Of a stretch of DNA of 64,000 nt, positions 13,822 through 60,761 are shown piece by piece (the first letter of the stretch is position 1; the number at the start of each line of letters is the position of its first letter). The notes under the pieces are model-generated. The model did no database searches. It was not told the DNA's origin and was given only the letters and a program-made list of their open reading frames with translations. A program made the translations under genes and the position numbers. This DNA comes from Escherichia coli (GTDB lineage: Bacteria > Pseudomonadota > Gammaproteobacteria > Enterobacterales > Enterobacteriaceae): NCBI RefSeq assembly GCF_030013205.1, contig NZ_CP122648.1. One strand, written 5' to 3'.

Positions 13822-13842
13822 TATGCAGTGATTTTTGTTTTT

Positions 13843-14366: not shown

Positions 14367-14480
14367 CATGACATGACCATCCACCCAAAAGGCACCTCAC
14401 CGGTGCCTTTACCATTTCTGGGTTGTATATCTGCATTCAGTTAATTACTCTGCTTAAACCATGAGAGCAGAGAGAAAAAA

Positions 14481-15599: not shown

Positions 15600-15608
15600 T
15601 CATCATTA

Positions 15609-15633
15609 CGGCCTCCAGAATGAGGCCGTTTTT
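15609..15633 (+). terminator. Rho-independent terminator after solA
   Basis: CGGCCTC-loop-GAGGCCG followed by TTTTT. Confidence 0.45.
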
Positions 15634-16587: not shown

Positions 16588-16590
16588 AAA

Positions 16591-17166: not shown

Positions 17167-17207
17167 GCGTGAAATGTTGCCGGATGGCACGCATCCGGCA
17201 ATGATAT

Positions 17208-18260
17208 TTATTCTGTTGGATCAGGAATGCCCAGTGTTGTATTCAGACGTCCACGAGACTTATTAAAGATCTTATTGCCATTTTCACGTCCTGCCCGACG
17301 GCGTCGCTGTTCTTCAGGCGGTAACGCGCTTTCTTCGCAGCAAATCTCACTACAACAACCTTTGTATTTTTCCGCACATACTGGACACTGAATAAACAGC
17401 AGGTGGCAGCCATCATTTTTACAGTTGGTATGGCTGTCGCACGGCGCACCGCACTGGTGGCAATGCGCGATAATCTCATCAGAGATACGTTCGCCCATCC
17501 GCTCGTCAAAAACAAAATTTTTGCCAATAAAACGCACCGGCAAGCCCTGCTCGCGCGCCTTACGGGCGTATTCAATAATTCCGCCCTCGATATGCCAGAC
17601 TTTGTTGAATCCGTTATGTTTCATCCAGGCACTGGCTTTTTCACAACGAATGCCGCCGGTGCAGTACATGACGATTTTTTTATCTTTATGTGCCTGCATC
17701 ATCTCGACTGCTTTTGGCAACTGCTCACGGAAGGTATCTGCCGGAATTTCCAGCGCGTTTTCAAAGTGCCCCACTTCATACTCATAGTGGTTACGCATGT
17801 CGATAAACAGTGCATCGGGATCGTCAAGCATGGCGTTCACTTCCGCCGCTTGCAAATACTCACCAACATTACTGGCATCGAAGTGAGGATCATCAATACC
17901 GTCGGCAACAATGCGATCGCGTACCTTCATGCGCAGTACCCAGAAGGATTTCCCGTCATCATCCAACGCGATATTCAGGCGTATGCCCTCTAAAGCCGGG
18001 TCGAAGGCATAGAGCTGCGCGCGAAATGTTTCAACATTGCTCGCAGGTACGCTGATTTGCGCGTTAATGCCCTCATGCGCCAGATACACTCGCCCAAAAA
18101 CATTCAGCGCGGTAAACAGCTGATATAAAGCGTCACGGGTCGCCTTAGGATCGGCGATGTGGAAATACTTATAAAACGAAATGGTGGTTCGCGGTTCGCT
18201 CTCAGCCAACATTTTGGCTTTTAACGCGTCGTTGGAAATGCGGTTGTGTAACACTGGCAT
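17208..18260 (-). CDS. trhO: tRNA uridine(34) hydroxylase TrhO (YceA), rhodanese domain
   Basis: Rhodanese active-site Cys ([12 protein letters not shown]) and C-terminal Cys cluster; start at [12 protein letters not shown] (350 aa). Confidence 0.88.
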
Positions 18261-18484
18261 GGTGTACGGTTCCTGCGAGATGGGAAAGTAAAAATCCGCG
18301 GCATGATATAGCAATTATCGATAATTAACATCCACACACTTTACGCTACATTTTAGCATTAAAAATTATTTGTTATTTACAAGCGCGGCAATTTCGCCCA
18401 GTCTTCAGCCACAAATTTTGGTTGCGGGCGAAAAAATGCGACAATACATACAATTGCCCGAATAGGTTGAAAAACAGGATTGAT

Positions 18485-19405
18485 ATGACGAATCTACCCA
18501 AGTTCTCCACCGCACTGCTTCATCCGCGTTATTGGTTAACCTGGTTGGGTATTGGCGTACTTTGGTTAGTCGTGCAATTGCCCTACCCGGTTATCTACCG
18601 CCTCGGTTGTGGATTAGGAAAACTTGCGTTACGTTTTATGAAACGACGCGCAAAAATTGTGCATCGCAACCTGGAACTGTGCTTCCCGGAAATGAGCGAA
18701 CAAGAACGCCGTAAAATGGTGGTGAAGAATTTCGAATCCGTTGGCATGGGACTGATGGAAACTGGCATGGCGTGGTTCTGGCCGGACCGCAGAATCGCCC
18801 GCTGGACGGAAGTGATCGGCATGGAACACATTCGTGACGTGCAGGCGCAAAAACGCGGCATCCTGTTAGTTGGCATCCATTTTCTGACACTGGAGCTGGG
18901 TGCGCGGCAGTTTGGTATGCAGGAACCGGGGATTGGCGTTTACCGCCCGAACGATAATCCACTGATTGACTGGCTACAAACCTGGGGCCGTTTGCGCTCA
19001 AATAAATCGATGCTCGACCGCAAAGATTTAAAAGGCATGATTAAAGCCCTGAAAAAAGGCGAAGTGGTCTGGTACGCACCGGATCATGATTACGGCCCGC
19101 GCTCAAGCGTTTTCGTCCCGTTGTTTGCCGTTGAGCAGGCTGCGACCACAACCGGAACCTGGATGCTGGCACGGATGTCCGGCGCATGTCTGGTGCCCTT
19201 CGTTCCACGCCGTAAGCCAGATGGCAAAGGGTATCAGTTGATTATGCTGCCGCCAGAGTGTTCTCCGCCGCTGGATGATGCCGAAACTACCGCCGCGTGG
19301 ATGAACAAAGTGGTCGAAAAATGCATCATGATGGCACCAGAGCAGTATATGTGGTTACACCGTCGCTTTAAAACACGCCCGGAAGGCGTTCCTTCACGCT
19401 ATTAA
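18485..19405 (+). CDS. lpxL: Lipid A biosynthesis lauroyltransferase LpxL (HtrB)
   Basis: 306 aa from [22 protein letters not shown] acyltransferase family. Confidence 0.9.
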
Positions 19406-19576
19406 ATCTCCCATGCCGGATGCTTCAGAAGGGTATCCGGCATTACCACAGCAAATCCCCCTGATTTAGCGATAAAAGCTCTCTGGATTGCGCCCCCTGG
19501 AAGTCGGGCGCATAATTAGTGTGCTTATCTTTTCTTCTTATGTTCACCGCGCCTGGCGCACCAACAGCGGATTGCT

Positions 19577-20803
19577 ATGTCACCCTGTGAAAATGACACC
19601 CCTATAAACTGGAAACGAAACCTGATCGTCGCCTGGCTAGGCTGTTTTCTTACGGGTGCCGCCTTCAGCCTGGTAATGCCCTTCTTACCCCTCTACGTTG
19701 AGCAGCTTGGCGTTACGGGCCACTCCGCCTTGAATATGTGGTCCGGTATTGTCTTCAGCATTACATTTTTATTTTCTGCCATCGCCTCACCGTTTTGGGG
19801 TGGACTCGCCGACCGTAAAGGCCGCAAACTCATGCTATTACGCTCTGCCCTCGGCATGGGCATCGTGATGGTGTTGATGGGGCTGGCACAAAATATCTGG
19901 CAGTTTTTGATCCTACGGGCGCTTCTTGGGTTACTTGGCGGATTTGTCCCCAACGCTAATGCTCTTATCGCCACACAAGTACCGCGTAATAAAAGCGGCT
20001 GGGCGCTGGGTACGCTCTCCACAGGCGGCGTTAGTGGTGCGTTGCTCGGCCCAATGGCTGGCGGCCTGCTCGCCGATAGCTACGGCTTACGTCCGGTATT
20101 CTTTATTACCGCCAGTGTGCTCATACTCTGCTTTTTCGTCACCCTGTTTTGCATCAGAGAAAAATTCCAGCCGGTCAGCAAAAAAGAGATGCTGCACATG
20201 CGTGAAGTGGTGACATCACTTAAAAACCCGAAACTGGTACTCAGCCTGTTTGTCACTACGTTAATCATCCAGGTGGCGACGGGCTCAATTGCCCCCATTC
20301 TGACGCTGTATGTCCGCGAACTGGCGGGTAACGTCAGTAACGTCGCCTTTATCAGTGGCATGATCGCCTCGGTGCCAGGCGTGGCGGCTCTGCTGAGTGC
20401 ACCACGACTCGGCAAACTTGGCGATCGAATCGGACCCGAAAAGATCCTGATTACGGCGCTGATCTTTTCTGTACTGCTATTGATCCCAATGTCTTACGTT
20501 CAGACGCCATTACAACTTGGGATTTTACGTTTTTTGCTCGGTGCCGCCGATGGTGCACTACTCCCCGCCGTACAGACACTGTTGGTTTACAACTCGAGCA
20601 ACCAAATCGCCGGGCGTATCTTCAGCTATAACCAGTCGTTTCGTGATATTGGAAACGTTACCGGACCATTGATGGGAGCCGCGATTTCAGCGAACTACGG
20701 TTTCAGAGCGGTATTTCTCGTCACCGCTGGCGTAGTGTTATTCAACGCAGTCTATTCATGGAACAGTCTACGTCGTCGTCGAATACCCCAGGTATCGAAC
20801 TGA
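19577..20803 (+). CDS. mdtG: MFS efflux transporter MdtG
   Basis: 408 aa, 12-TM MFS. Confidence 0.9.
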
Positions 20804-21564: not shown

Positions 21565-21655
21565 GTGAACGCCTTATCCGACCTACAAAATCTTGCAAAA
21601 TCAACACATTGCAGGAGCGATGTAGGCCTGATAAGCGTAGCGCATCAGGCAACTA
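21565..21655. repeat. REP (repetitive extragenic palindromic) elements between yceK and opgH
   Basis: GCCTTATCCGACCTAC... and TGTAGGCCTGATAAGCGTAGCGCATCAGGCA resemble the E. coli REP consensus; a hairpin plus T-run at about 21508-21540 also lies in this gap. Confidence 0.5.
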
Positions 21656-31115: not shown

Positions 31116-31869
31116 GTTGTCACCCTGGACCTGGTCGTACATTTAAGAAATTAAATCATTTCAACTTGGTTGTTAACGCAACCTGTATTTTGTTAACGCT
31201 GCGTTACGATGGAAAGTATGTCTGCGGAAATATTTTTAATAACTCACCCGCACGTTGTATTTTTCTTTTTTTGTTCATACCAAAGTATTAAAACCCACGT
31301 AAATACGCTGTTATCTACGAAAAAAAATATTTTGTTTTCTTTTAAATCTCCGTTTTCCGCAATCAAAAATCACCAGACAGCCATTTTTCTTGCCCGTCGC
31401 TTATTGCTGCGATATGTCTTGCGCACAAGCCGTGACAAACCTCGTCTTTTTGCAGTAAAAAATTGTCCACGGAGGTGTGGAGAAAAAACAACAACGTTTT
31501 ACATGACGAAAGGACTACACCGAAATATTTTTTATATGCATTATTAGTAAGTTAGCACCATTTGTATGATTTTTTAAAATTGTGCAATAAAAACCAAATG
31601 TACAACTTTTCTATCATTTCTAAACTTAACAAAACCTTAAGATTAACATTTTAATATAACGAGTTACATTTAGTTACATGTTTAACACTTGATTTAAGAT
31701 TTGTAATGGCTAGATTGAAATCAGATGTAATCCATTAGTTTTATATTTTACCCATTTAGGGCTGATTTATTACTACACACAGCAGTGCAACATCTGTCAG
31801 TACTTCTGGTGCTTCTATTTTAGAGGCAGCTGTCAGGTGTGCGATCAATAAAAAAAGCGGGGTTTCATC
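31116..31869. promoter_or_regulatory. csgB-csgD divergent intergenic regulatory region (about 750 bp, AT-rich)
   Basis: Long AT-rich non-coding spacer between divergent curli operons; known from the literature to integrate many regulators. Individual sites not mapped here. Confidence 0.7.
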
Positions 31870-43292: not shown

Positions 43293-44536
43293 GCGAGTTG
43301 AGTTATCTGGAAAAATTGCTGGATGGGGTTGTGGTTGAGTGGAAAACCCTTGAGGATATTTCTATAAAGATATCATCTGGAGGAACCCCTAAAACTGGCG
43401 TATCAGAATTTTATGATGGCGACATTCCTTGGTTGCGAACTCAAGAAGTAAACTTTTGTGATATATGGGATACCGAGGTAAAAATAACTGAGTCTGGAGT
43501 TAAAAACTCTAGTGCAAAATGGATACCAAAGAATTGTGTCATTGTTGCTATGTATGGGGCAACTGTGGGGAAAATCGGCATAAACAAAATTCCAATGACA
43601 ACAAATCAAGCGTGCGCAAATATTCAACTTAATGAAGAAGTTGCTCATTATAGATATGTATTTCACTTCTTGTGTAGCCAATACACATATATCAAATCCC
43701 TTGGAACAGGGTCCCAGACAAACATAAATGCGCAGATTGTCAAAAATATTAAGATCCCCATCCCCTGCCCAGAAAACCCGGAAAAATCCCTTGCCATCCA
43801 GTCTGAAATCGTTCGGATTCTGGACAAATTTACTGCACTTACCGCTGAGCTTACCGCTGAGCTTAACATGCGTAAAAAACAGTACAACTACTATCGCGAC
43901 CAGTTGTTGAGTTTTAAAGAGGGTGAGGTTGAGTGGAAAAGTCTGGAAGATATTGCTTTATTTAGACGGGGTTCATTTCCACAGCCATATGGAAATAGTG
44001 AATGGTATGATGGAGAAGGTTGCATGCCTTTTGTTCAGGTAGCTGATGTGGCTGATTCAGGATTTACATTACACACAAAAACCAAACAACAGATTTCTAA
44101 GATTGCACAAAGCAAGAGCGTTTTTGTTGAGGCTGGAACAATTGTTGTGACACTGCAAGGTACTATTGGTCGAGTAGCAATAACACAGTACGATTGTTAT
44201 GTGGATAGAACTCTTGCAATATTTACTAACTTTAAAGTAAAAATAAACAAAAAATACTTTGCTTATCAACTAAAAGCTAAATTCGATTCAGAGAAAGAAT
44301 TTGCAAGAGGAAGTACTTTGAAGACAATTACAAAAGAAGAGTTTTCTAAGTTCCAATTACCTCTTCCCTCAATAAACGAACAAAATCGTATAGTATCACT
44401 ATTGGATAAGTTCGATACACTGGCTCATTCAATAAAACAAGGTCTCCCGCGTGAAATCGAGTTGCGCCAGAAACAATACGAATACTACCGTGATTTACTG
44501 TTCAGTTTCCCGAAACCTGAAACTGCCAGTAATTAA
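43289..44536 (+). CDS. hsdS: Type I restriction-modification specificity subunit HsdS (two target-recognition domains)
   Basis: 415 aa; ATGA overlap with hsdM; conserved central and C-terminal repeats ([14 protein letters not shown] / [15 protein letters not shown]); TAEL-TAEL spacer. Confidence 0.88.
43841..43864 (+). repeat. Tandem 12-bp repeat ACCGCTGAGCTT x2 encoding TAEL-TAEL in the hsdS central spacer
   Basis: Read directly from sequence; same repeat class whose copy number sets spacer length in EcoR124I/EcoR124II. Confidence 0.85.
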
Positions 44537-44657
44537 TTGATCATTGCTACCGATCGGACCACCTTAACACCCGGTCAGTATATAGACTATTTTTTACGCG
44601 CCGGAAGTCACCATTACCCCCCTTCCGGCCCTTGCCAGACGGCACAAAGGATGCGCT

Positions 44658-47600
44658 ATGACTCATCAGACACACACCATTGCTGAATCCAATAACTTTA
44701 TCGTTCTTGATAAGTACATCAAAGCTGAGCCAACAGGCGACAGCTACCAGAGCGAATCGGACCTGGAACGTGAACTGATTCAGGACCTGCAAAATCAGGG
44801 TTATGAATTTATTTCCGTAAAATCACAGTCGGCAATGCTATCCAATGTTCGGGAACAGCTTCAGAGCCTCAATGGTGTGATGTTTAATGACAGCGAGTGG
44901 CGGCGCTTCACGGAGCAGTATCTGGACAACCCCAGCGATGGTATTCTGGATAAAACCCGTAAAATCCATATCGACTATATCTGCGACTTTATTTTTGACG
45001 ACGGGCGACTTGAGAACATCTATTTGATAGATAAAAAGAATCTCATGCGCAATAAGGTGCAGATTATCCAGCAGTTTGAACAGACGGGTTCTCATGCTAA
45101 CCGTTATGACGTCACGATCCTGGTTAATGGTTTACCGCTGGTGCAAATCGAACTAAAAAAACGCGGGGTGGCGATTCGTGAGGCTTTCAACCAGATACAT
45201 CGTTACAGTAAAGAGAGTTTTAACAGCGAAAATTCCCTGTTTAAGTATCTGCAACTGTTTGTCATTTCTAACGGCACCGATACCCGTTATTTTGCCAACA
45301 CGACAAAGCGCGATAAAAACAGTTTTGACTTCACCATGAATTGGGCGAAATCAGACAACACGCTGATTAAAGACCTCAAAGACTTTACCGCTACCTTTTT
45401 CCAGAAACATACTCTGCTGAATGTTCTGGTGAACTACAGCGTTTTTGACAGTAGTCAGACGCTACTGGTGATGCGACCGTACCAGATTGCCGCCACCGAG
45501 CGCATTCTGTGGAAAATTAAGAGTTCCTTTACAGCGAAGAACTGGTCAAAACCGGAAAGCGGTGGGTATATCTGGCACACTACCGGTTCTGGTAAAACCC
45601 TCACCAGCTTTAAAGCCGCGCGTCTGGCAACAGAGCTGGACTTTATTGATAAAGTCTTCTTTGTGGTCGACAGGAAAGACCTCGATTACCAGACCATGAA
45701 GGAATATCAGCGTTTTTCGCCAGACAGCGTCAACGGCTCGGAAAATACCGCAGGCCTTAAACGAAATCTGGATAAGGACGATAACAAAATTATCGTCACT
45801 ACTATTCAGAAACTCAATAACCTGATGAAAGCAGAAAGCGACCTGCCTGTATATAATCAGCAAGTGGTGTTTATATTTGATGAATGCCACCGCAGCCAGT
45901 TTGGAGAAGCGCAGAAAAACCTGAAGAAGAAATTCAAACGCTATTATCAGTTTGGTTTTACCGGCACCCCTATTTTCCCGGAAAACGCCTTAGGCTCAGA
46001 AACAACCGCCAGCGTATTTGGTCGTGAATTGCATTCGTATGTAATTACCGATGCGATTCGTGACGAAAAAGTGCTCAAATTCAAAGTGGACTACAACGAT
46101 GTGCGGCCACAGTTTAAGTCTTTAGAGACAGAAACTGACGAGAAAAAACTAAGTGCGGCTGAAAATCAGCAGGCGTTTCTTCATCCCATGCGTATTCAGG
46201 AAATCACGCAATATATTCTGAATAATTTCCGCCAGAAAACTCACCGTACCTTCCCTGGCTCAAAAGGTTTTAATGCTATGTTGGCAGTGAGCAGCGTGGA
46301 TGCCGCGAAAGCCTATTATGCGACGTTTAAACGGTTACAAGAAGAAGCCGCTAATAAATCGGCTACCTATAAACCGCTGCGTATTGCGACAATCTTCTCC
46401 TTTGCCGCCAATGAAGAACAAAATGCCATTGGTGAAATTTCCGATGAAACTTTTGATACCAGCGCAATGGACAGCAGTGCTAAAGAGTTTCTGGACGCTG
46501 CAATTCGTGAATATAACAGCCATTTTAAAACTAACTTTAGCACCGACAGTAACGGTTTTCAGAACTACTATCGTGATTTAGCCCAGCGGGTTAAAAATCA
46601 GGATATCGATCTGCTAATTGTCGTGGGGATGTTTTTAACCGGCTTCGATGCTCCAACATTGAACACGCTATTCGTCGATAAAAACTTGCGTTTTCACGGC
46701 CTGATGCAGGCATTTTCCCGCACCAACCGTATTTATGATGCAACTAAAACCTTCGGTAATATCGTCACTTTCCGGGATCTGGAACGCTCAACTATTGATG
46801 CCATAACGCTGTTTGGTGATAAAAACACCAAAAATGTGGTGTTAGAAAAGAGTTATGCTGAGTATATGGAAGGCTTTACTGATGCTGCTACTGGTGAAGC
46901 TAAACGCGGCTTCATGACAGTAGTTTCAGAACTGGAACAACGGTTCCCTGACCCTGCCAGTATTGAAAGTGAAAAAGAGAAGAAAGACTTCGTTAAACTG
47001 TTTGGCGAATACCTGCGTGCCGAGAACATCCTGCAAAACTATGATGAATTTGCCACGCTAAAAGCCCTGCAACAAATCGATCTTAGCGATCCTGTTGCGG
47101 TAGAAAAATTCAAAGCAGAACATTATGTGGATGATGAAAAGTTCGCTGAATTGCAAACAATTCGTCTCCCTGCTGATCGCAAGATTCAGGATTATCGTTC
47201 TGCCTATAACGATATTCGCGACTGGCAGCGCCGTGAGAAAGAAGCTGAGAAAAAAGAGAAATCAACCACTGACTGGGATGACGTAGTTTTTGAGGTCGAT
47301 TTGCTGAAGTCTCAGGAAATAAACCTGGATTATATCCTTGGACTGATTTTCGAACACAACAGACAAAATAAAGGCAAGGGCGAAATGATCGAAGAGGTCA
47401 AACGCTTAATTCGTTCAAGCCTGGGGAACCGTGCTAAAGAGGGCCTGGTGGTCGATTTTATTCAGCAAACGAACCTGGATGATTTACCGGACAAAGCCAG
47501 CATCATTGACGCATTCTTTACGTTTGCTCAACGCGAACAGCAACGTGAAGCAGAAGCCTTGATCAAAGAAGAAAATCTCAATGAAGAGGCGGCGAAACGC

Positions 47601-47774
47601 TATATTCGCACATCTTTAAAACGCGAATACGCCACCGAAAATGGCACGGAATTAAACGAGACACTGCCCAGACTCAGTCCTTTAAATCCGCAATATAAAA
47701 CGAAAAAACAGACTGTTTTTCAAAAAATTAGCGCATTTATTGAAAAATTTAAGGGGGTGGGTGGAAAGATTTAG
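44658..47774 (+). CDS. hsdR: Type I restriction enzyme endonuclease/translocase subunit HsdR
   Basis: 1,038 aa; Walker A TGSGKT and DEAD-box variant FDECHRSQ; good ribosome-binding site; follows hsdMS. Confidence 0.9.
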
Positions 47775-48970
<1,196 letters not shown>

Positions 48971-49163
48971 CTAAGATAATTGGTTTTTAGCGAGTGACGG
49001 GCTAGGTTGTGTCAGTCTGTCTCATGTCGATATTACGGGGATGATGCAAACCTGAATGCTGCGATATTGGCGTGTCAGGGGAGGCATCTTACGGTATCAT
49101 TTACCGCAATTTTTAAGATGCAATGCCCTGCATCGCAGGCTTTTCTTCAGACCAGGATGATTC

Positions 49164-50216
49164 ATGAACGACAAAATCAGTCAGGACACGATCAACAAAG
49201 CCCTGTGGGCCGCGTGTGATACGTTCCGTGGCACCATCAGTGCTGATACCTATAAAGACTTTATCCTTACCATGCTGTTCCTTAAGTACATTTCGGATGT
49301 CTGGCAGGATCATTACGATGAATATAAAAAACAGTATGGTGATGCACCAGAACTCATTGAAGCCATGATGGCGAATGAACGTTTCGTATTGCCGAAAAGC
49401 GCCAGTTTCTATGCGCTGTATGAACGTCGTCATGAACCGGGCAATGGTGAGCGCATCGACCAGGCTCTGCATGCGATTGAAGAAGCTAATGGCACCAAAC
49501 TGAAAGACGCCGGGAAAAGCGTGTTCCAGGATATTTCGTTTAACACCGATCGCCTAGGTGAAGAAAAACAGAAGAACACCATCCTGCGTCAGCTGCTGGA
49601 AGACTTTGCCGGTCAAGATCTTAACCTGAAGCCGAGCCGTGTCGGTACGCTGGACGTTATCGGTAATGCCTACGAATATCTGATCAAAAACTTTGCTGCC
49701 AGCGGTGGGCAGAAAGCCGGGGAATTCTATACCCCACCAGAAGTTTCGGACCTGATTGCAGAACTGCTCGATCCGCAACCGGGTGATACCATCTGCGATC
49801 CAGCCTGTGGTTCCGGTTCATTATTGATGAAGTGTGGGCGTAAAATTGTCTCCGGGCATGATAGTCGTAACTATGCATTGTTCGGTCAGGAAGCGATCGG
49901 TTCTGCGTGGTCGCTGGCGAAAATGAATATGTTCCTGCACGGGGAAGACAACCATAAAATCGAGTGGGGCGATACCATTCGTAACCCGAAGCTGCTCGAT
50001 AAAAATGGCGACCTGATGCTGTTTGATATCGTGACCGCTAACCCACCGTTCAGCCTCGATAAGTGGGGCCATGACGAGGCCGAGAACGATAAGTTTGGCC
50101 GTTTTCGTCGCGGTGTACCGCCGAAGACTAAAGGAGGTATGGGATGCCTGCGCCAATATGGAGCGCTATATCCAGTACGGCTTTACCCCGCAAGAGCGCC
50201 ACCGTCTGTTTGGTGA
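49164..50216 (+). pseudogene. hsdM: Second type I restriction-modification methyltransferase hsdM, 3'-truncated (homology ends near 50,130; 3' tail of ORF is out-of-context)
   Basis: HsdM N-domain, DPACGSGSLL and NPPFS motifs present, but ORF ends ...[13 protein letters not shown] then unrelated tail; no hsdS follows. Confidence 0.7.
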
Positions 50217-51471
50217 GAGCGACTGGGGTCAGTTTGTGCCCCGTGATTTTGCCCATCTGCTTGATCTGCTAGGATCCCCAAACACGGCCGACGCTGCCGA
50301 TAAAAGCCGTGCAGCTGCCGGTAGCCAAGGGCGCACCTTGTTGGCCATTTTGCAGGATGACAAGCTTGATGGTGAGCAGACGGTGGAGGAGGAGAGCGCA
50401 GGCTCCGAGCGCTTTAACAGCGTCATCAACTTCTCCAACTTCTTGCTCCATGTGCTGCGACTCGTGAGCCGCGACCCGGGTGATACGGAGGGGGTGCCGC
50501 TTGATGATAAACAACTGGTCGATCAGTTTGAGCTGCGAGTGATAAGGCAACCGGATCCAGTAGCGGCAGTTCAGCGTTTTATCTATGGCCTGTTAAAGAG
50601 CAAGTATCTGTTTGATCAGTTCATCATCAAGCGCGAGTTTGCCGATGGCAAGGATAGTTGGAGTTTGAAGCGGCTGCACAGGTATTCGGAAAAGAGCGTC
50701 AGTTACATCAATACCTTTGACAAGGATGAAAATGAGAATGGTTTCTCTGGTGTTAACCGGCGGGTCCTGATGTTGCTGTCGGCGTTTCATGTGTCGACCC
50801 CGACCCTGGTTTACAAACATTGGCTGAATGGTGCACTGAGATATCTGTTCGACAATTGTCACCCTGATCAACCGGTGGATGCCGGGGCTTATCTGTCCTA
50901 TCTGGAGAGTCAGGCTCGCCGCTTTGTCTTCCAGCGCTTTTTGGCGCCTGGTGAAGGGGCTTCCTATTACCAGATGCTCTACCTTGATAACGCCCTGTTG
51001 CCCGCCATCAATGTGGATGAGAGTTGGCACAAGGTGATTACATCCAAACTTCGCTTCGGTCATATCGAGAACAACTTTGTCTTCAACTTCCTCGACTATC
51101 TGCTGTGGGTACGAGATCGGAATAGCGACAAAGTTGCTGGCTCCTTTGAGTTCACTTTCCGCAGCTCGGTGGAGCACTTCTCACCCCAGCATCCGATGGA
51201 TGGCTATAAACCGGTTGAGCAGAGTGCACTCCATTCGTTTGGCAACCTTTGCCTTATCAGCCACAGCAAGAACTCGCGCTTGAGTAACTTCCAGCCGCAA
51301 CAGAAGCAGGAGCACTTTGAAGCAAGCCTTGCCAATAACCAGACTGATAGTCTTAAATTGCTTGCTATGATTCGGCTGATGAAAGATAAAGGTCGTTGGC
51401 TGGAAGATGAGATAGCTGTGCATCAACAAGATATGTTGCAGGTCTTACTATCCAATCAAATTCAGCAATAA
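50158..51471 (+). pseudogene. GmrSD-like type IV restriction enzyme, C-terminal DUF1524 (His-Me finger) portion; 5' DUF262 part missing
   Basis: C-terminal ...[15 protein letters not shown]...[16 protein letters not shown] resembles the DUF1524 motif; no DGQQR DUF262 motif; upstream in-frame sequence is hsdM DNA read in another frame. Could alternatively be expressed from ATG 50158. Confidence 0.5.
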
Positions 51472-51657
51472 CGGATTGAATCTGTTTATGAAATTTGGCT
51501 GCTATCAACTAATGGGCGTTAAGTTGATTGTATGATCTGATTGATAAAGAAGGGGAGACTAAAAATCTCCTCTTCTTTGCAGCAGTTTACTGCGGTCTTT
51601 TTGTGATGCATCAGCATAAAACGTTTTACTTGTGGACCCTAAGAAATGGAGAACATT

Positions 51658-54600
51658 ATGTCGACTGTAGATACCTCTATAGCAGAGGAACTCAATCAAG
51701 GAGGCTCAGATTTTATTCTGACTTCCCTCGAGGCTATGCGTAAGAAGTTATTGGACCTTACGTCTCGAAATCGACTTTTGAATTTCCCTATCACTCAAAA
51801 AGGGTCTTCACTACGTATTGTTGATGAATTACCAGAACAGCTTTATGAAACCCTTTGCTCGGAAATCCCGATGGAATTTGCTCCTGTGCCCGATCCAACT
51901 AGAGCGCAGCTGTTAGAGCATGGCTATCTCAAAGTTGGGCCAGATGGTAAAGATATACAGTTAAGAGCTCATCCTAGCGCTAAGGATTGGGCGCACGTCT
52001 TAGGAATCCGTACAGATTTTGATTTACCAGATAGCCATAAAACGGTTGTTTCTGATTCAGATAGAGAGTTGCTGGAAAAAGCCCATCAGTTTATCTTGCA
52101 ATATGCCCAAGGCCAGAATGGAAAATTAACAGGGATTCGTTCTGAATACGTTAATCAAGGTATAGCTTTGTCAGCGTTGAAGGAGGCGTGCTGCTTAGCA
52201 GGCTATGAAGGGCTTGAGGATTTTGAACGACAGGCAAAGGCTGGGAATGAGATTAGTATATCTTCTTCCAATCCCTCTCATGACGATAATCGGATACAGG
52301 CTCTGCTTTATCCAAATGAACTGGAAGCTTGTTTGCGCGCCATCTATGGTAAGGCTCAAACTGCTTTGGAGGAGAGTGGCGCCAACATCTTGTATTTGGC
52401 GTTAGGGTTCCTTGAGTGGTATGAAAGCGATTCCTCTGAAAAGGCACGTTATGCACCGTTATTTACAATTCCGGTGAGATGTGAACGAGGAAAATTAGAT
52501 CCGAAGGATGGTCTTTACAAGTTTCAACTTTATTACACGGGTGAAGATATTTTGCCCAATCTCTCTTTGAAGGAAAAACTTCAGGCTGACTTTGGCCTCG
52601 CTCTTCCTTTGTTCAATGAAGAGGAAACTCCAGAGTCTTATTTTGCTTCGGTGAAGAAGGTTGTAGAGCAGCACAAACCTAAATGGTCTGTGAAACGTTA
52701 TGGTGCACTTAGCTTGCTCAATTTTGGCAAGATGATGATGTATCTTGACCTCGATCCTGCCCGCTGGCCTTGTGACAAGCGCAATATATTGTCTCATGAA
52801 GTAATTCGTCGCTTTTTCACCAGTCAGAGCTGTGGTCAAGAGAATTCCGGCTTACCTGGTGGCTTCGGTCAGCATGAGTACTGCATCGATAGTTACCCTG
52901 ATATTCATGACAAGGTTCCACTAATCGATGATGCGGATAGCTCGCAGCACAGTGCGTTGATCGATGCTATCCGTGGTCAAAACTTAGTCATTGAGGGCCC
53001 TCCTGGTAGTGGCAAATCACAAACGATCACCAACTTGATTGCAGCAGCTCTGCTCAACGGTAAGAAAGTCCTGTTTGTGGCAGAGAAGATGGCTGCACTG
53101 GAGGTCGTCAAACGTCGCTTGGATCGTGCGGGGCTAGGTCAATTTTGCTTAGAGTTGCACAGTCATAAAACTCATAAGCGCAAGGTGCTGGATGATATTA
53201 ATGCTCGCTTGGTGAGTCAGGCGACCATGCCTACTATGGAAGAGATTGATGCTCAGATTTTGCGTTATGAAGATCTTAAGCAGCAGCTCAATGAATATGC
53301 CGCATTGATCAATAACCAATGGGCGCAAACAGGCAAAACGATCCATCAGATTTTGAGTGGTGCAACCCGTTATCGTCACAAATTAGATATTGATGCAACA
53401 GCACTTCATATCGAAAACCTTTCCGGGAAGCAGTTGGATAAAGTGACCCAATTACGGCTGCGTGACCAAATAGTAGAGTTTAGCCGCATCTACAAAGAGG
53501 TTCGTGAGCAGGTGGGGGCTAATGCAGAAATATATGAGCACCCTTGGAGCGGTGTGAATAACACACAAATTCAATTGTTTGACAGCGCTCGTATAGTCGA
53601 TTTGCTACAAACTTGGCAGACATCAATTATCGACTTTCAACATAGCTATCAAGAATATGTAGATAAGTGGGCGTTAGAAGGCGAAAGCCTTAATACGCTT
53701 CAATATATTGAGCAATTGGTAGAAGATCAGTCGAATCTTCCAGTGTTGTGTGGTTCAGAGCATTTCCCAGCACTTAGTGAGCTAGATTCACCCGATGCCA
53801 TTGCACGGGTGCGTCACTATTTAGATAGGTTCGAGTTGCTACAAGGTCATTATGTGGCCTTGAGCCAGGTTATCGAGCCTCAAAAGCTACGACTTTTAGA
53901 ACAAGGACAATCGTGTGACTTTCCTCGTGAAGAGCTGGAAAAATATGGTGCAGCAGAGGATTTCACTTTACGTGATTTGGTCAGGTGGCTTGAATCCATC
54001 CAATCAATTCATGATGAGTTATCATCTATTTATGCGCAATTAAACGATTTCAAAAATGCTTTGCCAGATGGTATTGCTTCGTATATCGATGATTCGCAAG
54101 CTGGATTGCTATTCTGCTCTGAGTTGTTGTCGATTCTGGGTGCTTTACCGACTGAGCTTATTAGAGTTCGAGATCCTCTTTTTGATGATGATGATATCGA
54201 TGCAGTATTGCGCGACTTAATGTGTCAAATCGAAACATTGCGTCCTTTAAGAGATGGTCTATCTACTTTGTATCAATTGGACCAGTTGCCTTCCCAAGAG
54301 ATGCTCGCGCATGCCGTTGCTGTTATCCAGCAAGGGGGATTATTTGCATGGTTTAAGAGTGATTGGCGTAGTGCCAAGGCACTGCTCATGGCGCAATCTC
54401 GTAAGCCCGACACTAAGTTTGCTGAGTTAAAACGCTGCTCAGCTGATTTGCTCAAGTATTCGGAGCTGTTACAACGGTTTGAACAAAGTGACTTTGGTAA
54501 TCAACTTGGTAATGCATTCCGAGGGTTGGACACCGACTGTGAACAACTCATGTTATTGCGTGATTGGTACAAGAAGGTCCGAGCTTGTTACGGGATAGGT

Positions 54601-57393
54601 TTTGGAAAGCGAGTTGCGATAGGCTCTGGATTATTTAACCTAGATGGTGAGATTATCAAAGGTGTGCATTTAATCGAGAAATCGCAGATTAGCTCAAGAT
54701 TAATGACTTTGGTTAAACGGGTCGAGCACGAGGCTAAGTTATTACCGCGTATTTCTAGCTTGTTGGAAGAACATGCATCTTGGTTAGGTGAGCAAGGTGT
54801 ATTGATGCAATCTTACCGACAGGTGCGGAATACTCTCATTGCCTTGCAGGGATGGTTTATCAATCCAGATATATCATTAGAGCAGATGACTCATTCCTCC
54901 GAGATTTTGCAAAACATAAACGATCTTCAGATATCCCTTGAAAATGACTCGTTACAGTTAGGGGCGTTTTTACAATTAACCCCATTGGCTTGCGGTGCGT
55001 ATAAAAATAATCAACTGACGTTAGACACTATTAACGACACGCTGAATTTTGCCGAGCAACTGGTTGATAAGATAAATTGCGTATCCTTGGCTACCCAGAT
55101 CAGACATTTGGCTAGTGGTAGTGATTACGATTTACTATGTCGTGATGGTGGGGAAATAGTTTCGAAATGGAATGAACAGATTAAAAATGCTGAGTTATAT
55201 GCGCTAGAAACAAAGTTAGAGCGGAGTCAGTGGCTCAAGTCGACTGATGGTTCTCTTAATACATTAATCGAGCGCAACGAAAGAGCAATACAGCAACCCC
55301 GTTGGTTGAACGGGTGGGTTAACTTTATTCGTTGTTACGAGCAGATGGATGAAAACGGATTGCAGCGAATCTGGAGTGCTGTACTTGCGGGCTCGCTCCC
55401 GATTGAAAAAGTTGAATTGGGTTTAGCATTAGCAATTCATGACCAGCTGGCGCGGGAGGTTATTCACATCCACCCTGAATTGATGAGAGTTTCCGGCTCA
55501 CAGCGCAATGCTTTGCAGAAGTCATTTAAAGATTACGACAAAAAACTGATTGAATTACAACGTCAGCGGATTGCAGCAAAAATTGCTTGCCGAAATATAC
55601 CAGAAGGGAATTCTGGTGGTAAGAAAAGCGAATATACAGAACTAGCTTTGATCAAAAATGAGTTGGGTAAAAAAACCAGACATATTCCAATTAGACAATT
55701 GGTTAACCGTGCATGTAATGCGCTGGTTGCAATTAAACCTTGTTTCATGATGGGGCCAATGTCAGCAGCTCATTACCTAGAACCTGGACGAATGGAATTT
55801 GATCTGGTGGTGATGGACGAAGCGTCTCAGGTGAAGCCAGAGGATGCATTGGGTGTCATCGCGAGGGGCAAGCAACTAGTGGTCGTTGGTGACCCGAAAC
55901 AGCTACCACCAACCAGTTTCTTTGATCGAAGTGCCGACGGAGAAGATGACGATGATGCCGCGGCTTTAAGTGATACTGACAGCATTTTGGATGCTGCTTT
56001 GCCACTGTTTCCTATGAGACGTTTGCGTTGGCACTATCGTTCACGACATGAAAAGTTGATTGCATACTCTAACCGCCATTTTTATAACAGTGATTTGGTG
56101 ATATTCCCTTCCCCAAATGCTGAGTCTCCAGAGTATGGGATTAAATTTACCTATGTGTCAAAAGGTCGGTTCTCCAATCAACACAATATTGAAGAAGCCC
56201 AAGCAGTTGCTGAGGCCGTACTTCATCATGCGCAACACCGGCCGGGTGAGTCACTCGGGGTAGTGGCCATGAGTTCCAAGCAACGCGATCAAATTGAGCG
56301 CGCTATCGATGAATTGCGCCGAAATCGCCCTGAATTTAACGATGCAATCGATGGCTTATATGCCATGGAAGAGCCACTTTTTGTGAAAAACCTTGAGAAC
56401 GTTCAAGGGGATGAGCGTGATGTAATCTTTATTTCCTTTACCTATGGACCTTCTGAGCATGGTGGAAAGGTTTATCAACGCTTTGGACCTATCAATTCCG
56501 ATGTTGGCTGGCGTCGCTTGAATGTGCTTTTCACTCGATCAAAAAAACGGATGCATGTGTTTAGTTCAATGCGTTCTGAAGATGTATTGACGAGTGAAAC
56601 CAGTAAACTTGGTGTTATTTCGTTGAAAGGTTTTTTACAGTTTGCCGAAAGTGGCAAACTAGATTCCCTCACAACGCATACCGGCAGGGCTCCAGATAGT
56701 GACTTTGAGGTTGCTGTAATGGAAGCACTCAATCACGCTGGGTTTGAGTGTGAACCTCAGGTAGGGGTTGCAGGATTCTTTATTGATCTAGCTGTGAAAG
56801 ATCCAGGTTGTCCTGGCCGTTACTTAATGGGCATAGAGTGTGATGGTGCGGCTTATCACTCAGCTAAATCTGCTCGTGATCGTGACCGTTTGCGTCAAGA
56901 GGTTCTGGAGCGTTTGGGTTGGAGAATTAGCCGCATTTGGTCCACTGATTGGTTCAGTAATCCTGATGAGGTTCTATCTCCGATTATCCGTAAACTCCAT
57001 GAGCTTAAAACATTGGCTCCAGACGTTGTTGTACCTTCCTATGAATATGTAGAAACGATTGAGTCAAGCGCTGAAGTGGCGTCTGACTCAATTGATTCTC
57101 TTATGCCCAATTTGGGGCTTAAGGAGCAACTTAAGTATTTTGCCACACATGTCATTGAGGTTGAGCTTCCTAATGTTGATGCTGATCGTCGTTTGTTGCG
57201 GCCCGCAATGCTTGAGGCTTTGCTGGAACATCAGCCTTTATCACGTTCCGAGTTTGTTGAACGAATACCTCATTATCTGCGGCAAGCAACAGATGTATAC
57301 GAAGCGCAACGCTTTCTTGACCGAGTCTTGGCATTAATTGATGGCGCAGAGGCTGAAGCGAATGATGCAGCGTTTGAGTCTGAATTGGCATAA
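51658..57393 (+). CDS. Giant DUF4011-type SF1 (Upf1-like) helicase with C-terminal Vsr/DUF559-like endonuclease domain (Hhe-like architecture); candidate defence protein
   Basis: DUF4011-like signatures (LLDLTSRNRLLNF, ILYLALGFLEW), Walker A GPPGSGKS (52996-53019), motif II VVMDEASQ (55807-55830), motifs V/VI QGDERDVIFIS...RRLNVLFTRSKKRM, then GFFIDLAVKD...IECDGAAYHS...RDRDRLRQEVLERLGWRISRIW Vsr-like fold; ATG 51658 has GGAG 6 nt upstream (alternative ATG 51646). Confidence 0.85.
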   Translation: MSTVDTSIAEELNQGGSDFILTSLEAMRKKLLDLTSRNRLLNFPITQKGSSLRIVDELPEQLYETLCSEIPMEFAPVPDPTRAQLLEHGYLKVGPDGKDIQLRAHPSAKDWAHVLGIRTDFDLPDSHKTVVSDSDRELLEKAHQFILQYAQGQNGKLTGIRSEYVNQGIALSALKEACCLAGYEGLEDFERQAKAGNEISISSSNPSHDDNRIQALLYPNELEACLRAIYGKAQTALEESGANILYLALGFLEWYESDSSEKARYAPLFTIPVRCERGKLDPKDGLYKFQLYYTGEDILPNLSLKEKLQADFGLALPLFNEEETPESYFASVKKVVEQHKPKWSVKRYGALSLLNFGKMMMYLDLDPARWPCDKRNILSHEVIRRFFTSQSCGQENSGLPGGFGQHEYCIDSYPDIHDKVPLIDDADSSQHSALIDAIRGQNLVIEGPPGSGKSQTITNLIAAALLNGKKVLFVAEKMAALEVVKRRLDRAGLGQFCLELHSHKTHKRKVLDDINARLVSQATMPTMEEIDAQILRYEDLKQQLNEYAALINNQWAQTGKTIHQILSGATRYRHKLDIDATALHIENLSGKQLDKVTQLRLRDQIVEFSRIYKEVREQVGANAEIYEHPWSGVNNTQIQLFDSARIVDLLQTWQTSIIDFQHSYQEYVDKWALEGESLNTLQYIEQLVEDQSNLPVLCGSEHFPALSELDSPDAIARVRHYLDRFELLQGHYVALSQVIEPQKLRLLEQGQSCDFPREELEKYGAAEDFTLRDLVRWLESIQSIHDELSSIYAQLNDFKNALPDGIASYIDDSQAGLLFCSELLSILGALPTELIRVRDPLFDDDDIDAVLRDLMCQIETLRPLRDGLSTLYQLDQLPSQEMLAHAVAVIQQGGLFAWFKSDWRSAKALLMAQSRKPDTKFAELKRCSADLLKYSELLQRFEQSDFGNQLGNAFRGLDTDCEQLMLLRDWYKKVRACYGIGFGKRVAIGSGLFNLDGEIIKGVHLIEKSQISSRLMTLVKRVEHEAKLLPRISSLLEEHASWLGEQGVLMQSYRQVRNTLIALQGWFINPDISLEQMTHSSEILQNINDLQISLENDSLQLGAFLQLTPLACGAYKNNQLTLDTINDTLNFAEQLVDKINCVSLATQIRHLASGSDYDLLCRDGGEIVSKWNEQIKNAELYALETKLERSQWLKSTDGSLNTLIERNERAIQQPRWLNGWVNFIRCYEQMDENGLQRIWSAVLAGSLPIEKVELGLALAIHDQLAREVIHIHPELMRVSGSQRNALQKSFKDYDKKLIELQRQRIAAKIACRNIPEGNSGGKKSEYTELALIKNELGKKTRHIPIRQLVNRACNALVAIKPCFMMGPMSAAHYLEPGRMEFDLVVMDEASQVKPEDALGVIARGKQLVVVGDPKQLPPTSFFDRSADGEDDDDAAALSDTDSILDAALPLFPMRRLRWHYRSRHEKLIAYSNRHFYNSDLVIFPSPNAESPEYGIKFTYVSKGRFSNQHNIEEAQAVAEAVLHHAQHRPGESLGVVAMSSKQRDQIERAIDELRRNRPEFNDAIDGLYAMEEPLFVKNLENVQGDERDVIFISFTYGPSEHGGKVYQRFGPINSDVGWRRLNVLFTRSKKRMHVFSSMRSEDVLTSETSKLGVISLKGFLQFAESGKLDSLTTHTGRAPDSDFEVAVMEALNHAGFECEPQVGVAGFFIDLAVKDPGCPGRYLMGIECDGAAYHSAKSARDRDRLRQEVLERLGWRISRIWSTDWFSNPDEVLSPIIRKLHELKTLAPDVVVPSYEYVETIESSAEVASDSIDSLMPNLGLKEQLKYFATHVIEVELPNVDADRRLLRPAMLEALLEHQPLSRSEFVERIPHYLRQATDVYEAQRFLDRVLALIDGAEAEANDAAFESELA

Positions 57394-57415
57394 TTAGTTA
57401 AAGGTAATAAGAACA

Positions 57416-57586
57416 GTGACAACTGTCGGACAACGTGAACGCGCAACTCAACAGCGCGTAATCAGGTTTTTTATTGAGGAATTGGGCTATCGTTATCTAG
57501 GCGATTGGCACAAGCGTCCTAACAACCGTAATGTTGAGCCTGATTTGCTCAGTCATTGGTTGATTGACCGTGGTGTTGTGGACTGA
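57416..57586 (+). pseudogene. Small ORF with HsdR-N-like motif, 22 nt downstream of the giant gene; terminated at the IS3-family element boundary
   Basis: GTG start; VTTVGQRERATQQRVIRFFIEELGYRYLGDWHK... ; stop TGA coincides with first bases of the IS; possible continuation at 62297-62484. Confidence 0.35.
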
Positions 57587-57613
57587 CCCCACGCCCGTAG
57601 ACAAATTCTGTCC

Positions 57614-58061
57614 TCACGACGAGGCCTGTTCGAAGGCCTCCGGACTGACGCCGCCGAGGTGACTGTGGCGCCGGGCCCGGTTGTAGAACACTTCAATGTA
57701 ATCGAAGATATCCGCCCGGGCTAGATCCCGGGTTTTGTATATTCTCTTCCTGATGCGCTCTTTTTTCAGTGAACTGAAGAACGATTCGGCCACCGCATTA
57801 TCCCAGCAGTTGCCACGCCGGCTCATGCTCGGGACCAGGTTATTAGCCCGGCAGAAGTGCTGCCAGTCGTCACTGCCGTACTGGCTTCCCTGGTCTGAGT
57901 GCACGATGACCTCGCCGTCGGGTTTACGTCGCCAGACCGCCATCATCAGTGCATCCAGCGCCAGTTCGCGTGAGAGAGTGGGCTTCATCGACCAGCCCAC
58001 CACGTTACGGGCGAAGAGATCGATAACCACCGCCAGATACAGCCAGCCCTGCCAGGTGCGG
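57614..58061 (-). pseudogene. IS3-family transposase OrfB, C-terminal exon (downstream of intron)
   Basis: ...[26 protein letters not shown]...DDE integrase core...NRARRHSHLGGVSPEAFE. Confidence 0.7.
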
Positions 58062-60332
58062 AGTAGAGTAAGAGGCAGGGCGTAGTCGGACTATTTCCCT
58101 GCCTCTCCTCCCCGAACCGGACGTGCACCTTTCAGCGCATCCGGCTCTCCATTTAAATGCTGGCGAACGCCATTGCCACTTCTGTAAAGCGCGATGTATA
58201 CGTGTTTCTGGTCTCCGTCCTCAGATAGGGATTACCTTCGGGTAGCCGCCAGCGGAACAGCTTCTTGCCTTGCCCCACCAACCGGTACAGTATTTCGCCG
58301 CTGAGCTTGCCGTGATTGGTTTTACCAAATAAAACCCACGTTTTGCTCTGACCCGGTTTCGGTGATTTACACCACCACCTCATCAGGGAAGCGATACCTG
58401 TACGGTATTTGTGGGCCAGCCAGTGAGCCAGCTTCCAGAACACGACACGGTCGATATAACTGAAGACTTTGGCCTTAAAATCAACGAACTGATAGAACAT
58501 GGCCCAGCCTTTCAGTTTTCGGTTGAGTTGTTCAGCCATATCGACTTTGCTTTCACTGTAGTTGCCTGATAACAGTGCTGTCAGCGATGCGGCGAAGTTT
58601 CTGGCTTTCTCCTGCGGGATCGTTGAGACCACTCGCATCTCGCCATAACGACTGCGTTTGCGAATGATCCTGTGCCCCAGAAAGATAAAGCCGTCATTAA
58701 CATGGGTGATTTTAGTCTTATCCATGTTCAGCCTGAGTTTCAGACTGCCTTTGAGCACACCCCGACACTCCTCCCTGATGGCTTCCGCCTGTGCTTTGGT
58801 GCCTTTGACGATGAGGACAAAATCATCGGCATAGCGGCAGTACGCCACCGCGGGTTTCCACTGCCAGTTTTCTCTGACCGCCGTACTTCGGCCCCGTTGG
58901 ATACTGTTATTCCAGTACCACCGATCTTTTCTGGCTTTCCCGCTCAGGTAGCGCTCATGCAGGTATTGATCGAACTCATTCAGCATGATGTTCGATAATA
59001 GCGGCGATATAACACCGCCCTGTGGCACACCTTCACTGGCCGCCCGAAAGAGACCGACATCGATATGTCCCGCCTTGATGGTTTTCCACAGCAGAGTCAT
59101 GAAACGTGCGTCACTGATCCTGCGGCGTACAGCCTTCATCAGCAGTCGATGATGTACGGTGTCGAAGTAACTGGACAGGTCGCCTTCAATCACCCAGCGT
59201 CCCCGGGTTTCACCACAGTCTGTGAGCTGTAATTTCACCGTGCGGATCGCGTGGTGGACACTGCGCTCAGGCCGGAAGCCATATGAGAGCGTATGAAAAT
59301 CACTCTCCCATATCGGCTCCATCGCCATCAGCATGGCCCGCTGAACAATACGATCCCGCAACGCGGGGATACCCAGTGGTCGCAGTTTGCCGTTGCTTTT
59401 AGGGATGTAAACCCGTCTGGCGGGCAAGGGCTGGTAGTGGCCTGAGAGTAATTCATCCCTGAGGATTTGCAGCTCAACAGCCAGTCTGGCCTGTAGCATT
59501 GTTTTGTTCACGCCATCAACGCCGGGGGTATGGGCCCCCTTTGATGAAAGCGTGATCCGCGCCGCTTCAGCCAGCCATTCTGGTTGTGTTATCAGACGCA
59601 GCAGCCGTTGAATCCGTAGGGACGGATCGGTGGCTGCCCATGTGGCAAGCTTGCGTTGCATTTCGCTGATTATCAAAGGTCTTCACCTCGTTAGGTCAGT
59701 TAATTCACGTCGTAAACACATTCAAACTGCTTCCCTTCGCCATGTAATGGGCTTTCCCCATCGCGGACTACTACGGAAGCTCCGCCAGCCAGCGCGTCAT
59801 CGGAGCCATGCCCCCTTAACATCCGTCGCTGACCTTCCCCGGTTTACCTGCCTGGACTCAGGCATACTGAGGAGGCTGCCCGTCGCACTCTTTATCCTTG
59901 CTTGCCGCAAGTTGGCAGAAGTCAGCAACGCAAGCGTGATAGACGCTGCTGCCCCGGTGTTTCGCATACATGTCAAAACACCTTCGACCGGCAGTGCTTA
60001 CGTATCACTGCCAGTTCCTCCTGCACGGCCTGTCAGATCACGTAGGCCGTGGTGACGTTTTCAACCCACAGAGGCGGATTAACGGGTTCATGTTCTTCAG
60101 CCTTTCAGTACTTAACCTTGAGGATCATCTCGGCTTAGTGATCTCGCCTCAATCCCCGTTGTCAGCGGGTTACATCACCTTGCGGGCATGCCGCAGGTCA
60201 CTGCCGCTCAGGTTCTCCACCGTCACACCCGGTGGGATTGTTGGGTTTCTCATCGTGAGTTACCGGTTCAATATTCCAGACAGATTCGCGGTTCATTTAA
60301 GCATCCATGCCCGCCCTGAACTCCGGGCACAC
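58062..60332 (-). mobile_element. Bacterial group II intron (about 2.27 kb) inserted in IS3-family orfB
   Basis: 5' end GUGUG at the exon junction (minus strand), 3' end ...CUAC; domain V-like hairpin GAGCCGGATGCGCTGAAAGGTGCACGTCCGGTTC near 58100-58135; reverse-transcriptase ORF in domain IV. Confidence 0.75.
58153..59676 (-). CDS. Group II intron-encoded reverse transcriptase/maturase
   Basis: 507 aa; reverse-transcriptase motifs including YADD (YCRYADDFVLIV); maturase X-like C-terminus. Confidence 0.85.
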   Translation of the reverse strand: MIISEMQRKLATWAATDPSLRIQRLLRLITQPEWLAEAARITLSSKGAHTPGVDGVNKTMLQARLAVELQILRDELLSGHYQPLPARRVYIPKSNGKLRPLGIPALRDRIVQRAMLMAMEPIWESDFHTLSYGFRPERSVHHAIRTVKLQLTDCGETRGRWVIEGDLSSYFDTVHHRLLMKAVRRRISDARFMTLLWKTIKAGHIDVGLFRAASEGVPQGGVISPLLSNIMLNEFDQYLHERYLSGKARKDRWYWNNSIQRGRSTAVRENWQWKPAVAYCRYADDFVLIVKGTKAQAEAIREECRGVLKGSLKLRLNMDKTKITHVNDGFIFLGHRIIRKRSRYGEMRVVSTIPQEKARNFAASLTALLSGNYSESKVDMAEQLNRKLKGWAMFYQFVDFKAKVFSYIDRVVFWKLAHWLAHKYRTGIASLMRWWCKSPKPGQSKTWVLFGKTNHGKLSGEILYRLVGQGKKLFRWRLPEGNPYLRTETRNTYTSRFTEVAMAFASI

Positions 60333-60693
60333 TATAGGTCACATCACCGCACCACACCTGATTTGGCTCGGTCACGGCGAACTGCCGTTCAAGGTAGTTA
60401 GGGATAGCAACGTGCTCATGACCGCCACGCTTATACCGGTGAGTCGGCTGCTGGCAACTGACCAGTCCCAGCTCTTTCATGAGTCTGCCAGCAAGCCAGC
60501 GCCCCATCTGGTAGCCTCTCCGGGTTGCCATTGTGGCGATGCTTCTTGCTCCGGCAGAGCCGTGGCTGATGCCATGCAGTTCAAGTACCTGGCTGCGTAA
60601 TACAGCCCGTCTGCCGTCTGGCTTTTCAGGACGGTTTTTCCAGTATTTGTAGCTGCTGCGATGGACCCCGAACACATGGCAGAGAGTGGCCAC
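60333..60693 (-). pseudogene. IS3-family transposase OrfB, N-terminal exon (upstream of intron)
   Basis: ...[14 protein letters not shown] then intron; IS911-like. Confidence 0.7.
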
Positions 60694-60761
60694 AGGATAA
60701 CGCGCCCTGAGTTTCCCGATTATCGAGAACTGTTCAGGGAGTCTGACATCAAGAGCGCGGT

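Follow-up and report, generated by a model that had tools for sequence, protein, structure and literature searches.

Hhe was reportedly first described as a single-gene anti-phage system by Gao et al. 2020. The gene protects Escherichia coli against lambda, T3, T7, and PhiV-1, with very weak defence against T7 in one study and none against T4, and the outcome was the same regardless of T4 cytosine modification (bioRxiv 10.1101/2022.06.16.496414). Defence was abolished by the nuclease-site mutation E1731A (bioRxiv 10.1101/2022.06.16.496414), and hhe has been both described and used as a single-gene system (bioRxiv 10.1101/2024.10.10.617714; bioRxiv 10.1101/2022.06.16.496414). Seven class II DNA-metabolism genes of T7 (g1.4-g2 and g2.8) act as triggers of the system; g40 of Bas63 also behaves as a trigger, its toxicity being limited to cells that carry hhe, and the Bas63 NAD+-synthesis genes g79 and g80 are weak counters, with an effect on plaque size only and not on plating efficiency (bioRxiv 10.1101/2024.10.10.617714). 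ORF65 of DruSM1 is a phage anti-hhe gene (bioRxiv 10.1101/2024.04.14.589459). The Discussion of the PhageMaP paper names gp130 as a counter to hhe as well, a candidate that was rejected since the Results of the same paper assign gp130 to ppl (bioRxiv 10.1101/2024.10.10.617714). A literature search returned no biochemical, structural, or mechanistic study of Hhe, and we therefore infer its substrate, polarity, trigger, and abortive character.

The anti-phage protein ProA (NF058533) is a large protein related to Hhe, and its model matches residues 194-1794 of the protein described below at 1,135.4 bits; this lies under its curated cut-off of 1,500, whereas the Hhe model scores far higher. Literature searches found no paper on ProA and nothing useful on PDC-S37. 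Upf1-like SF1B helicases (Upf1, IGHMBP2, Sen1/SETX, Aquarius, and Dna2) have in common with Hhe the RecA1/RecA2 core and helicase motifs, and carry accessory domains inserted into RecA1 in the same way; Dna2 furthermore couples its motor to a nuclease, as in Hhe. However, only about 175-212 residues align with Hhe, these helicases are without a counterpart to its 855-aa helical insert, its DUF4011, or its Vsr-like nuclease, and they are eukaryotic enzymes of RNA and DNA metabolism, not defence proteins. Hachiman HamAB and Mokosh MkoA/MkoC follow the same general logic of a helicase sensor or motor combined with a nuclease effector. In Hachiman, HamB detects DNA damage and then releases the HamA nuclease (PMC12278908). 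Hhe and Mokosh MkoA and MkoC have the SF1 helicase C-terminal region in common (E=1.7e-26 and 1.2e-21; PADLOC), but the Mokosh models match only residues 1377-1640, the RecA region, at 90.8 and 74.7 bits, and not over their full length; matches to further helicase models in PADLOC are likewise confined to this region. Hhe differs from both Hachiman and Mokosh as a single polypeptide with other accessory domains. It also differs from the DUF4011 helicases that bear a C-terminal DUF3320: a Pfam check for this domain, proposed in the first-pass annotation, was negative, with no match in residues 801-1911 even at E<=10.

The window examined here, a stretch of 64,000 nucleotides of E. coli DNA (contig NZ_CP122648.1 of assembly GCF_030013205.1), contains an uninterrupted open reading frame on the + strand at 51646-57393 (1,915 aa), recovered from the ORF list and its translation. 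The hhe coding sequence was placed at 51658-57393 (+) on the basis of the ORF list, the translation, PADLOC Hhe, NCBIfam NF042953, and the PGAP start. Initiation at the ATG at 51658 yields 1,911 aa plus a stop, in agreement with the single large ORF of about 1,911 codons noticed at the outset, and the ATG at 51646 is an alternative in-frame start. A Shine-Dalgarno-like GGAG, read from the sequence at 51648-51651 (+), lies 6 nt 5' of the ATG at 51658, and the start assigned by PGAP in identical copies is at this same ATG. The published numbering of E1731A fits the 1,915-aa form, as the Glu of the IECDG motif has the number 1731 with the start at ATG 51646 and 1727 with the start at ATG 51658. 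This suggests that the E. coli protein tested in the literature shares length and register with the one encoded here, the agreement between the tested construct and the window's allele being one of E1731 numbering only. The gene had been judged by eye to be AT-rich relative to the flanking core, and base counts concur: the G+C content of hhe is 44.4%, lower than that of the window (49.1%) and of the core flank (52-54%).

Profile searches assigned the predicted protein to Hhe. The PADLOC Hhe model PDLC02194 matched residues 1-1911 of 1911 in one stretch with 4,300.8 bits. The NCBIfam equivalog NF042953, titled 'DUF4011 domain-containing anti-phage protein Hhe', scored 2,738.3 bits against its curated equivalog cut-off of 2,000 bits, with residues 23-1894 corresponding to model positions 1-1797 of 1797, and identical copies are named hhe in RefSeq/PGAP annotation. 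The resemblance to Hhe that the first-pass annotation had pointed out is thus one of family membership. Judged from its sequence, the gene at 51658-57393 is an intact hhe of full length, and every part of the protein is present in the expected order. Its length, domain order, full-length profile matches, catalytic residues, and E1731 position are those of Hhe, and the window's copy differs by 1-5 aa from other E. coli copies (1 residue from that of strain ETEC4067 and 5 residues from that of KFu015). The predicted protein departs in no substantial respect from canonical Hhe; the usual upstream neighbours of the gene are deleted. Since hhe has already been described, experimentally validated, and named by standard annotation, the identification is correct, not new. 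The near-canonical allele is as suitable as any other for the study of the Hhe mechanism.

The domains of the predicted protein are arranged as follows. DUF4011 spans 51745-52581 (+; residues 30-308; Pfam PF13195, E=3.8e-37), in line with the DUF4011-like signatures described earlier for the N-terminal region. The N-terminal part of RecA1 is located at 52936-53172 (+; residues 427-505; Pfam AAA_11) and includes the Walker A motif GPPGSGKS at residues 447-454. It is separated from the C-terminal part of RecA1 and RecA2 (55738-56577, +; residues 1361-1640) by an all-alpha-helical insert in RecA1 of about 855 aa (53173-55737, +; residues ~506-1360), which falls between motifs I/Ia and II. The Pfam AAA_11 match is accordingly in two pieces (residues 427-618 and 1378-1420), AAA_12 is matched at E=2.3e-11, and motif II (VVMDEASQ) is found at residues 1384-1391, 937 residues from Walker A, which confirms the suggestion of a Upf1-like SF1 helicase whose Walker A and DExx box are about 930 residues apart. 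Further motifs include GDPKQLPP at residues 1411-1418, VQGDERD at 1582-1588, and motif VI (RLNVLFTRSK) at 1620-1629. A Vsr-like nuclease of the restriction-endonuclease fold occupies 56704-56997 (+; residues 1683-1780) and was recognised by MTES_1575 and DUF559 together with invariant residues. The Pfam match to MTES_1575 covers residues 1683-1780 (E=9.7e-37), and DUF559 gives a weaker match (E=4.4e-5) over part of the same stretch. The motifs quoted for the supposed Vsr/DUF559 pattern were all located (IECDG at 1726-1730, RDRDRLRQ at 1740-1747, and LGWRISRIW at 1753-1761), and this assignment of the C-terminal domain was upheld. The Pfam Vsr model itself gave no match at E<=10; the matches were confined to MTES_1575 and DUF559, related families that share its fold, and 'Vsr-like' is the accurate label.

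A protein search yielded 7,986 relatives at E<=1e-20, and the best 120 of these were 1,700-2,000 aa long with at least 88% query coverage. A conservation alignment was made of 40 of the best 120 relatives, with identity down to 45%. In 40 of 40 homologues the Walker A Lys and the motif II Asp were 932-939 residues apart and the insert was essentially gap-free, and because its length is constant in the 40 homologues the insert represents a canonical, length-constrained part of Hhe. The proposal that the long insert might mark a distinct lineage was rejected on these grounds, the length holding down to 45% identity. Invariant positions in the 40 homologues include G447, P449, G452, K453, and S454 of Walker A, D1387 and E1388 of motif II, Q1583 and R1587, R1627 of motif VI, and D1710, E1727, D1729, and H1734 of the nuclease; the window's hhe has kept all ATPase and nuclease catalytic residues. 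Mean column identity reached 0.91 in the N-terminal part of RecA1 (residues 427-505). Residues ~125-205 of DUF4011 were absent from most relatives in the 40-sequence alignment, representing a lineage-variable insertion. The C-terminal tail (56998-57390, +; residues 1781-1911) is without a recognised domain (no Pfam match) and has a mean column identity of 0.33 over residues 1781-1820 and 0.57 over residues 1821-1911. The last ~90 residues of the tail are moderately conserved. AlphaFold2 (AF2) modelled the insert as confidently all-helical, with pLDDT of 85-93 in most 10-residue blocks, though the overall pTM was only 0.38. No part of the insert aligned with solved structures, DUF4011 had no clear match among them, and Hhe has no entry in the PDB.

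The gene is part of an island shared with a porcine ETEC strain, ETEC4067, to whose locus window positions 37400-64000 are 99.985% identical. The core genes csg, mdoC, and ghrA precede the island, which starts at tRNA-Ser(GGA) (37415-37502, +; ARAGORN and Rfam), its core-side edge, and the match to the ETEC4067 island begins at 37400. An intact type I restriction-modification (R-M) system is located at 41736-47774 (+; NCBIfam TIGR00497 and TIGR00348), with complete CDSs in ETEC4067. It consists of hsdM (41736-43292, +; 518 aa; TIGR00497 positions 1-515 of 515, 651 bits), a full-length hsdS (43289-44536, +; 415 aa), and hsdR (44658-47774, +; 1,038 aa; TIGR00348 positions 2-674 of 674, 767 bits). 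An ISKpn26 (IS5-like) transposase gene (47922-48902, -; ETEC4067 annotation) lies between this system and the remnant of a cassette normally present 5' of hhe (49164-51471, +). In the remnant, the 5' part of a second hsdM, spanning model positions 4-324 of 515, runs at 50136 into a DUF262/HNH gene of which the 3' two-thirds are left, and in the identical locus of ETEC4067 both fused genes are flagged by PGAP as partial.

Comparison with KFu015 accounted for the fusion. In blastn, window positions 48971-50136 correspond to 408-1573 of the KFu015 locus (L002) and window positions 50136-58062 to 12737-20663, placing an 11.2-kb deletion at the junction at 50136 with a 1-nt overlap. The deleted genes comprise hsdS, a YecA-family gene matching the PADLOC candidate PDC-S12, a cold-shock-domain gene, hsdR, an M48/SprT peptidase gene, a complete DUF262 gene, and the 5' third of the one that follows it. 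The view of the surroundings as a decayed restriction locus is therefore correct for the second type I R-M system, reduced to a stub by the 11.2-kb deletion, but not for hsdMSR at 41736-47774, which is intact. The statement that no other large gene in this part of the island had escaped damage was likewise wrong, given that hsdM, hsdS, and hsdR are all full length. The undeleted block hsdR-SprT-DUF262-DUF262-hhe is found in KFu015, beside yecA/tyrP, as well as on IncFIB plasmids of Klebsiella, and thus constitutes a mobile multi-system defence cassette.

The best explanation overall, held with a probability of about 0.85, is that the window carries an intact copy of hhe that would act by a helicase-nuclease mechanism. 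Hhe would be inactive in uninfected cells. During infection, phage DNA metabolism would provide a DNA substrate or state onto which the Hhe helicase loads, and ATP hydrolysis would power translocation on ssDNA, in a direction assumed, from the analogous Upf1-like SF1B motors, to be 5'-3'. The tethered Vsr-like nuclease would then nick or cut DNA, blocking phage replication and harming the host cell too. DUF4011 and the giant helical insert are likely the sensing or autoinhibitory parts. A purely DNA-cutting model leaves the weak counter-effect of NAD+-regenerating phage genes unexplained. More speculatively, and with a rather low probability, the insert and DUF4011 might form a new sensor that responds to phage DNA metabolism and gates the nuclease; separately, and equally tentatively, Hhe may cooperate with the two DUF262 proteins of its native cassette. 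If true, both would be new biology of the Hhe family and not of the window's copy, and the latter would also make the truncated locus a natural 'partner-less' variant.

Other accounts of Hhe action were weighed against this mechanism. Hhe could be a direct, non-abortive restriction factor that recognises and destroys phage DNA and spares the host, given that its helicase-nuclease architecture resembles type I/III restriction enzymes and Dna2 and that restriction genes of the R-M and DUF262 (type IV-like) kinds accompany hhe. Such a factor is unlikely, since Hhe is described as a single-gene system (bioRxiv 10.1101/2024.10.10.617714) and would need no methyltransferase or self-marking partner, and the T4 cytosine modifications are without effect (bioRxiv 10.1101/2022.06.16.496414). 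Furthermore, Bas63 g40 is by itself toxic to cells with hhe, suggesting that activated Hhe harms the host, and the seven T7 DNA-metabolism triggers suggest that Hhe senses a process rather than a mark on the DNA (bioRxiv 10.1101/2024.10.10.617714). The weak counter-effect of Bas63 g79 and g80 speaks for a model in which Hhe cuts no DNA and instead depletes a metabolite (NAD+, adenine nucleotides, or ATP), the triggered helicase being a runaway ATPase; the PhageMaP authors themselves suggest possible NAD+ or adenine depletion (bioRxiv 10.1101/2024.10.10.617714). This model is judged highly improbable. Pfam, PADLOC, and NCBIfam identified no NADase-type domain (SIR2, TIR, NDT) in the protein, the nuclease catalytic residues are invariant family-wide, and defence is lost in the nuclease-site mutant E1731A (bioRxiv 10.1101/2022.06.16.496414), while the effect of g79 and g80 leaves plating efficiency untouched.

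A separate question is whether the window's copy is silent or non-functional, the 11.2-kb deletion having taken partner genes (the two DUF262 proteins) or a promoter. The order DUF262-DUF262-hhe is conserved on chromosomes and plasmids and is truncated at 50136 here, and no strong sigma-70-like promoter was seen in the 186-bp gap before hhe. The promoter scan was, however, a crude consensus match only, and a promoter/terminator scan of the gene region returned sites no more frequently than in shuffled sequence. In addition, the ORF is uninterrupted and within 1 residue of ETEC4067 and 5 of KFu015. The intergenic region is present in full together with 1.3 kb of upstream sequence, 99.8% identical to the intact cassette, and published work treats hhe as a single-gene system. 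Loss of function by this route thus appears quite unlikely, and an intact hhe with the helicase-nuclease mechanism is preferred.

With regard to distribution, 311 records from complete E. coli genomes contain hhe DNA at >=99% identity. Of 5,426 such genomes, 263 carry it with >=80% of the query covered, and PGAP names the gene hhe in them. The core DNA adjoining the island was present in 5,365 of the 5,426 genomes, and a core housekeeping helicase was rejected as an identity for the gene on this contrast in distribution. At 99.8% identity hhe was also found on 212 plasmids, of which 210 were from Klebsiella and 186 were conjugative. The gene is located at two or more chromosomal sites as well as on IncFIB plasmids; it is accessory, not core, and horizontally mobile. 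The window's hhe is a further entry in the defence-gene inventory of this E. coli island, and the locus illustrates the erosion of a cassette: hhe itself is intact, and around it lie IS elements, a group II intron, and the site of a deletion. Directly 3' of hhe, an IS3-family element (57614-60759, -) is split by the group II intron, with partial IS3 transposases marked by PGAP on both sides of ltrA (58153-59676, -; NCBIfam group_II_RT_mat, 339.8 bits). The Rfam match to Intron_gpII is at 58063-58149 (-), and homology to the intact IS3 of KFu015 stops at 58062.

The block of genes comprising hsdR, SprT/M48, two DUF262 genes and hhe, the gene for the intact helicase-nuclease Hhe (window 51658-57393, + strand), was examined in other genomic settings. 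At 99.8% identity, the same block was present at another E. coli chromosomal site in strain KFu015, adjoining yecA/tyrP, and on Klebsiella IncFIB conjugative plasmids, e.g. plasmid p2 of Klebsiella pneumoniae PittNDM01. Its behaviour is that of a mobile cassette carrying several defence systems. In Pseudomonas aeruginosa, a large gene with DUF4011 has been reported to belong to the conserved core and to flank the defence hotspot cDHS1 in every isolate (PMC10250203), indicating that some DUF4011 helicases, unlike hhe in E. coli, are not mobile accessory genes. Within Hhe, the DUF4011 domain holds a lineage-specific insertion of approximately 80 amino acids (residues about 125-205, window 52030-52272), which is missing from most homologues, with 72% gaps in the corresponding columns of the alignment; its predicted structure is helical.

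Upstream of hhe, comparison with the undeleted cassette of KFu015 (locus L002) revealed a deletion of 11.2 kb, with its junction at window 50136 and an overlap of 1 nt, that leaves hsdM and a DUF262/HNH gene both truncated and fused to each other. The missing stretch (L002 1573-12737) contained a second type I R-M system, together with the YecA-family (PADLOC PDC-S12), cold-shock-domain and M48/SprT genes embedded in it, as well as one whole DUF262 gene and one third of another. Directly 3' of hhe lies an IS3-family element split by a group II intron (window 57614-60759, - strand); the intron encodes ltrA (58153-59676, - strand) and its domain was matched by Rfam at 58063-58149 (- strand). Homology to the intact IS3 of KFu015 ends exactly at window 58062.

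Among 25 near-full-length copies of hhe sampled from other E. coli genomes, 4 were interrupted by an IS element (IS1203, IS1B, IS100 or ISKpn26), which hints at frequent inactivation, perhaps due to a cost of the gene.

The island carrying hhe also contains an antirestriction-protein gene and a type IV toxin-antitoxin pair, CbtA/CbeA (window 37999-39400, - strand), as annotated in the identical locus of the porcine ETEC strain ETEC4067, and Rfam matched IS102-RNA at 40246-40482. Within the window's core portion, the PyrC leader (12406-12455), ES036 (CssrF) sRNA (21587-21629) and ES056 sRNA (31723-31814) were each matched by Rfam above the gathering score. G+C content was just 39-41% at 30-33 kb, which coincides with the curli (csg) region.
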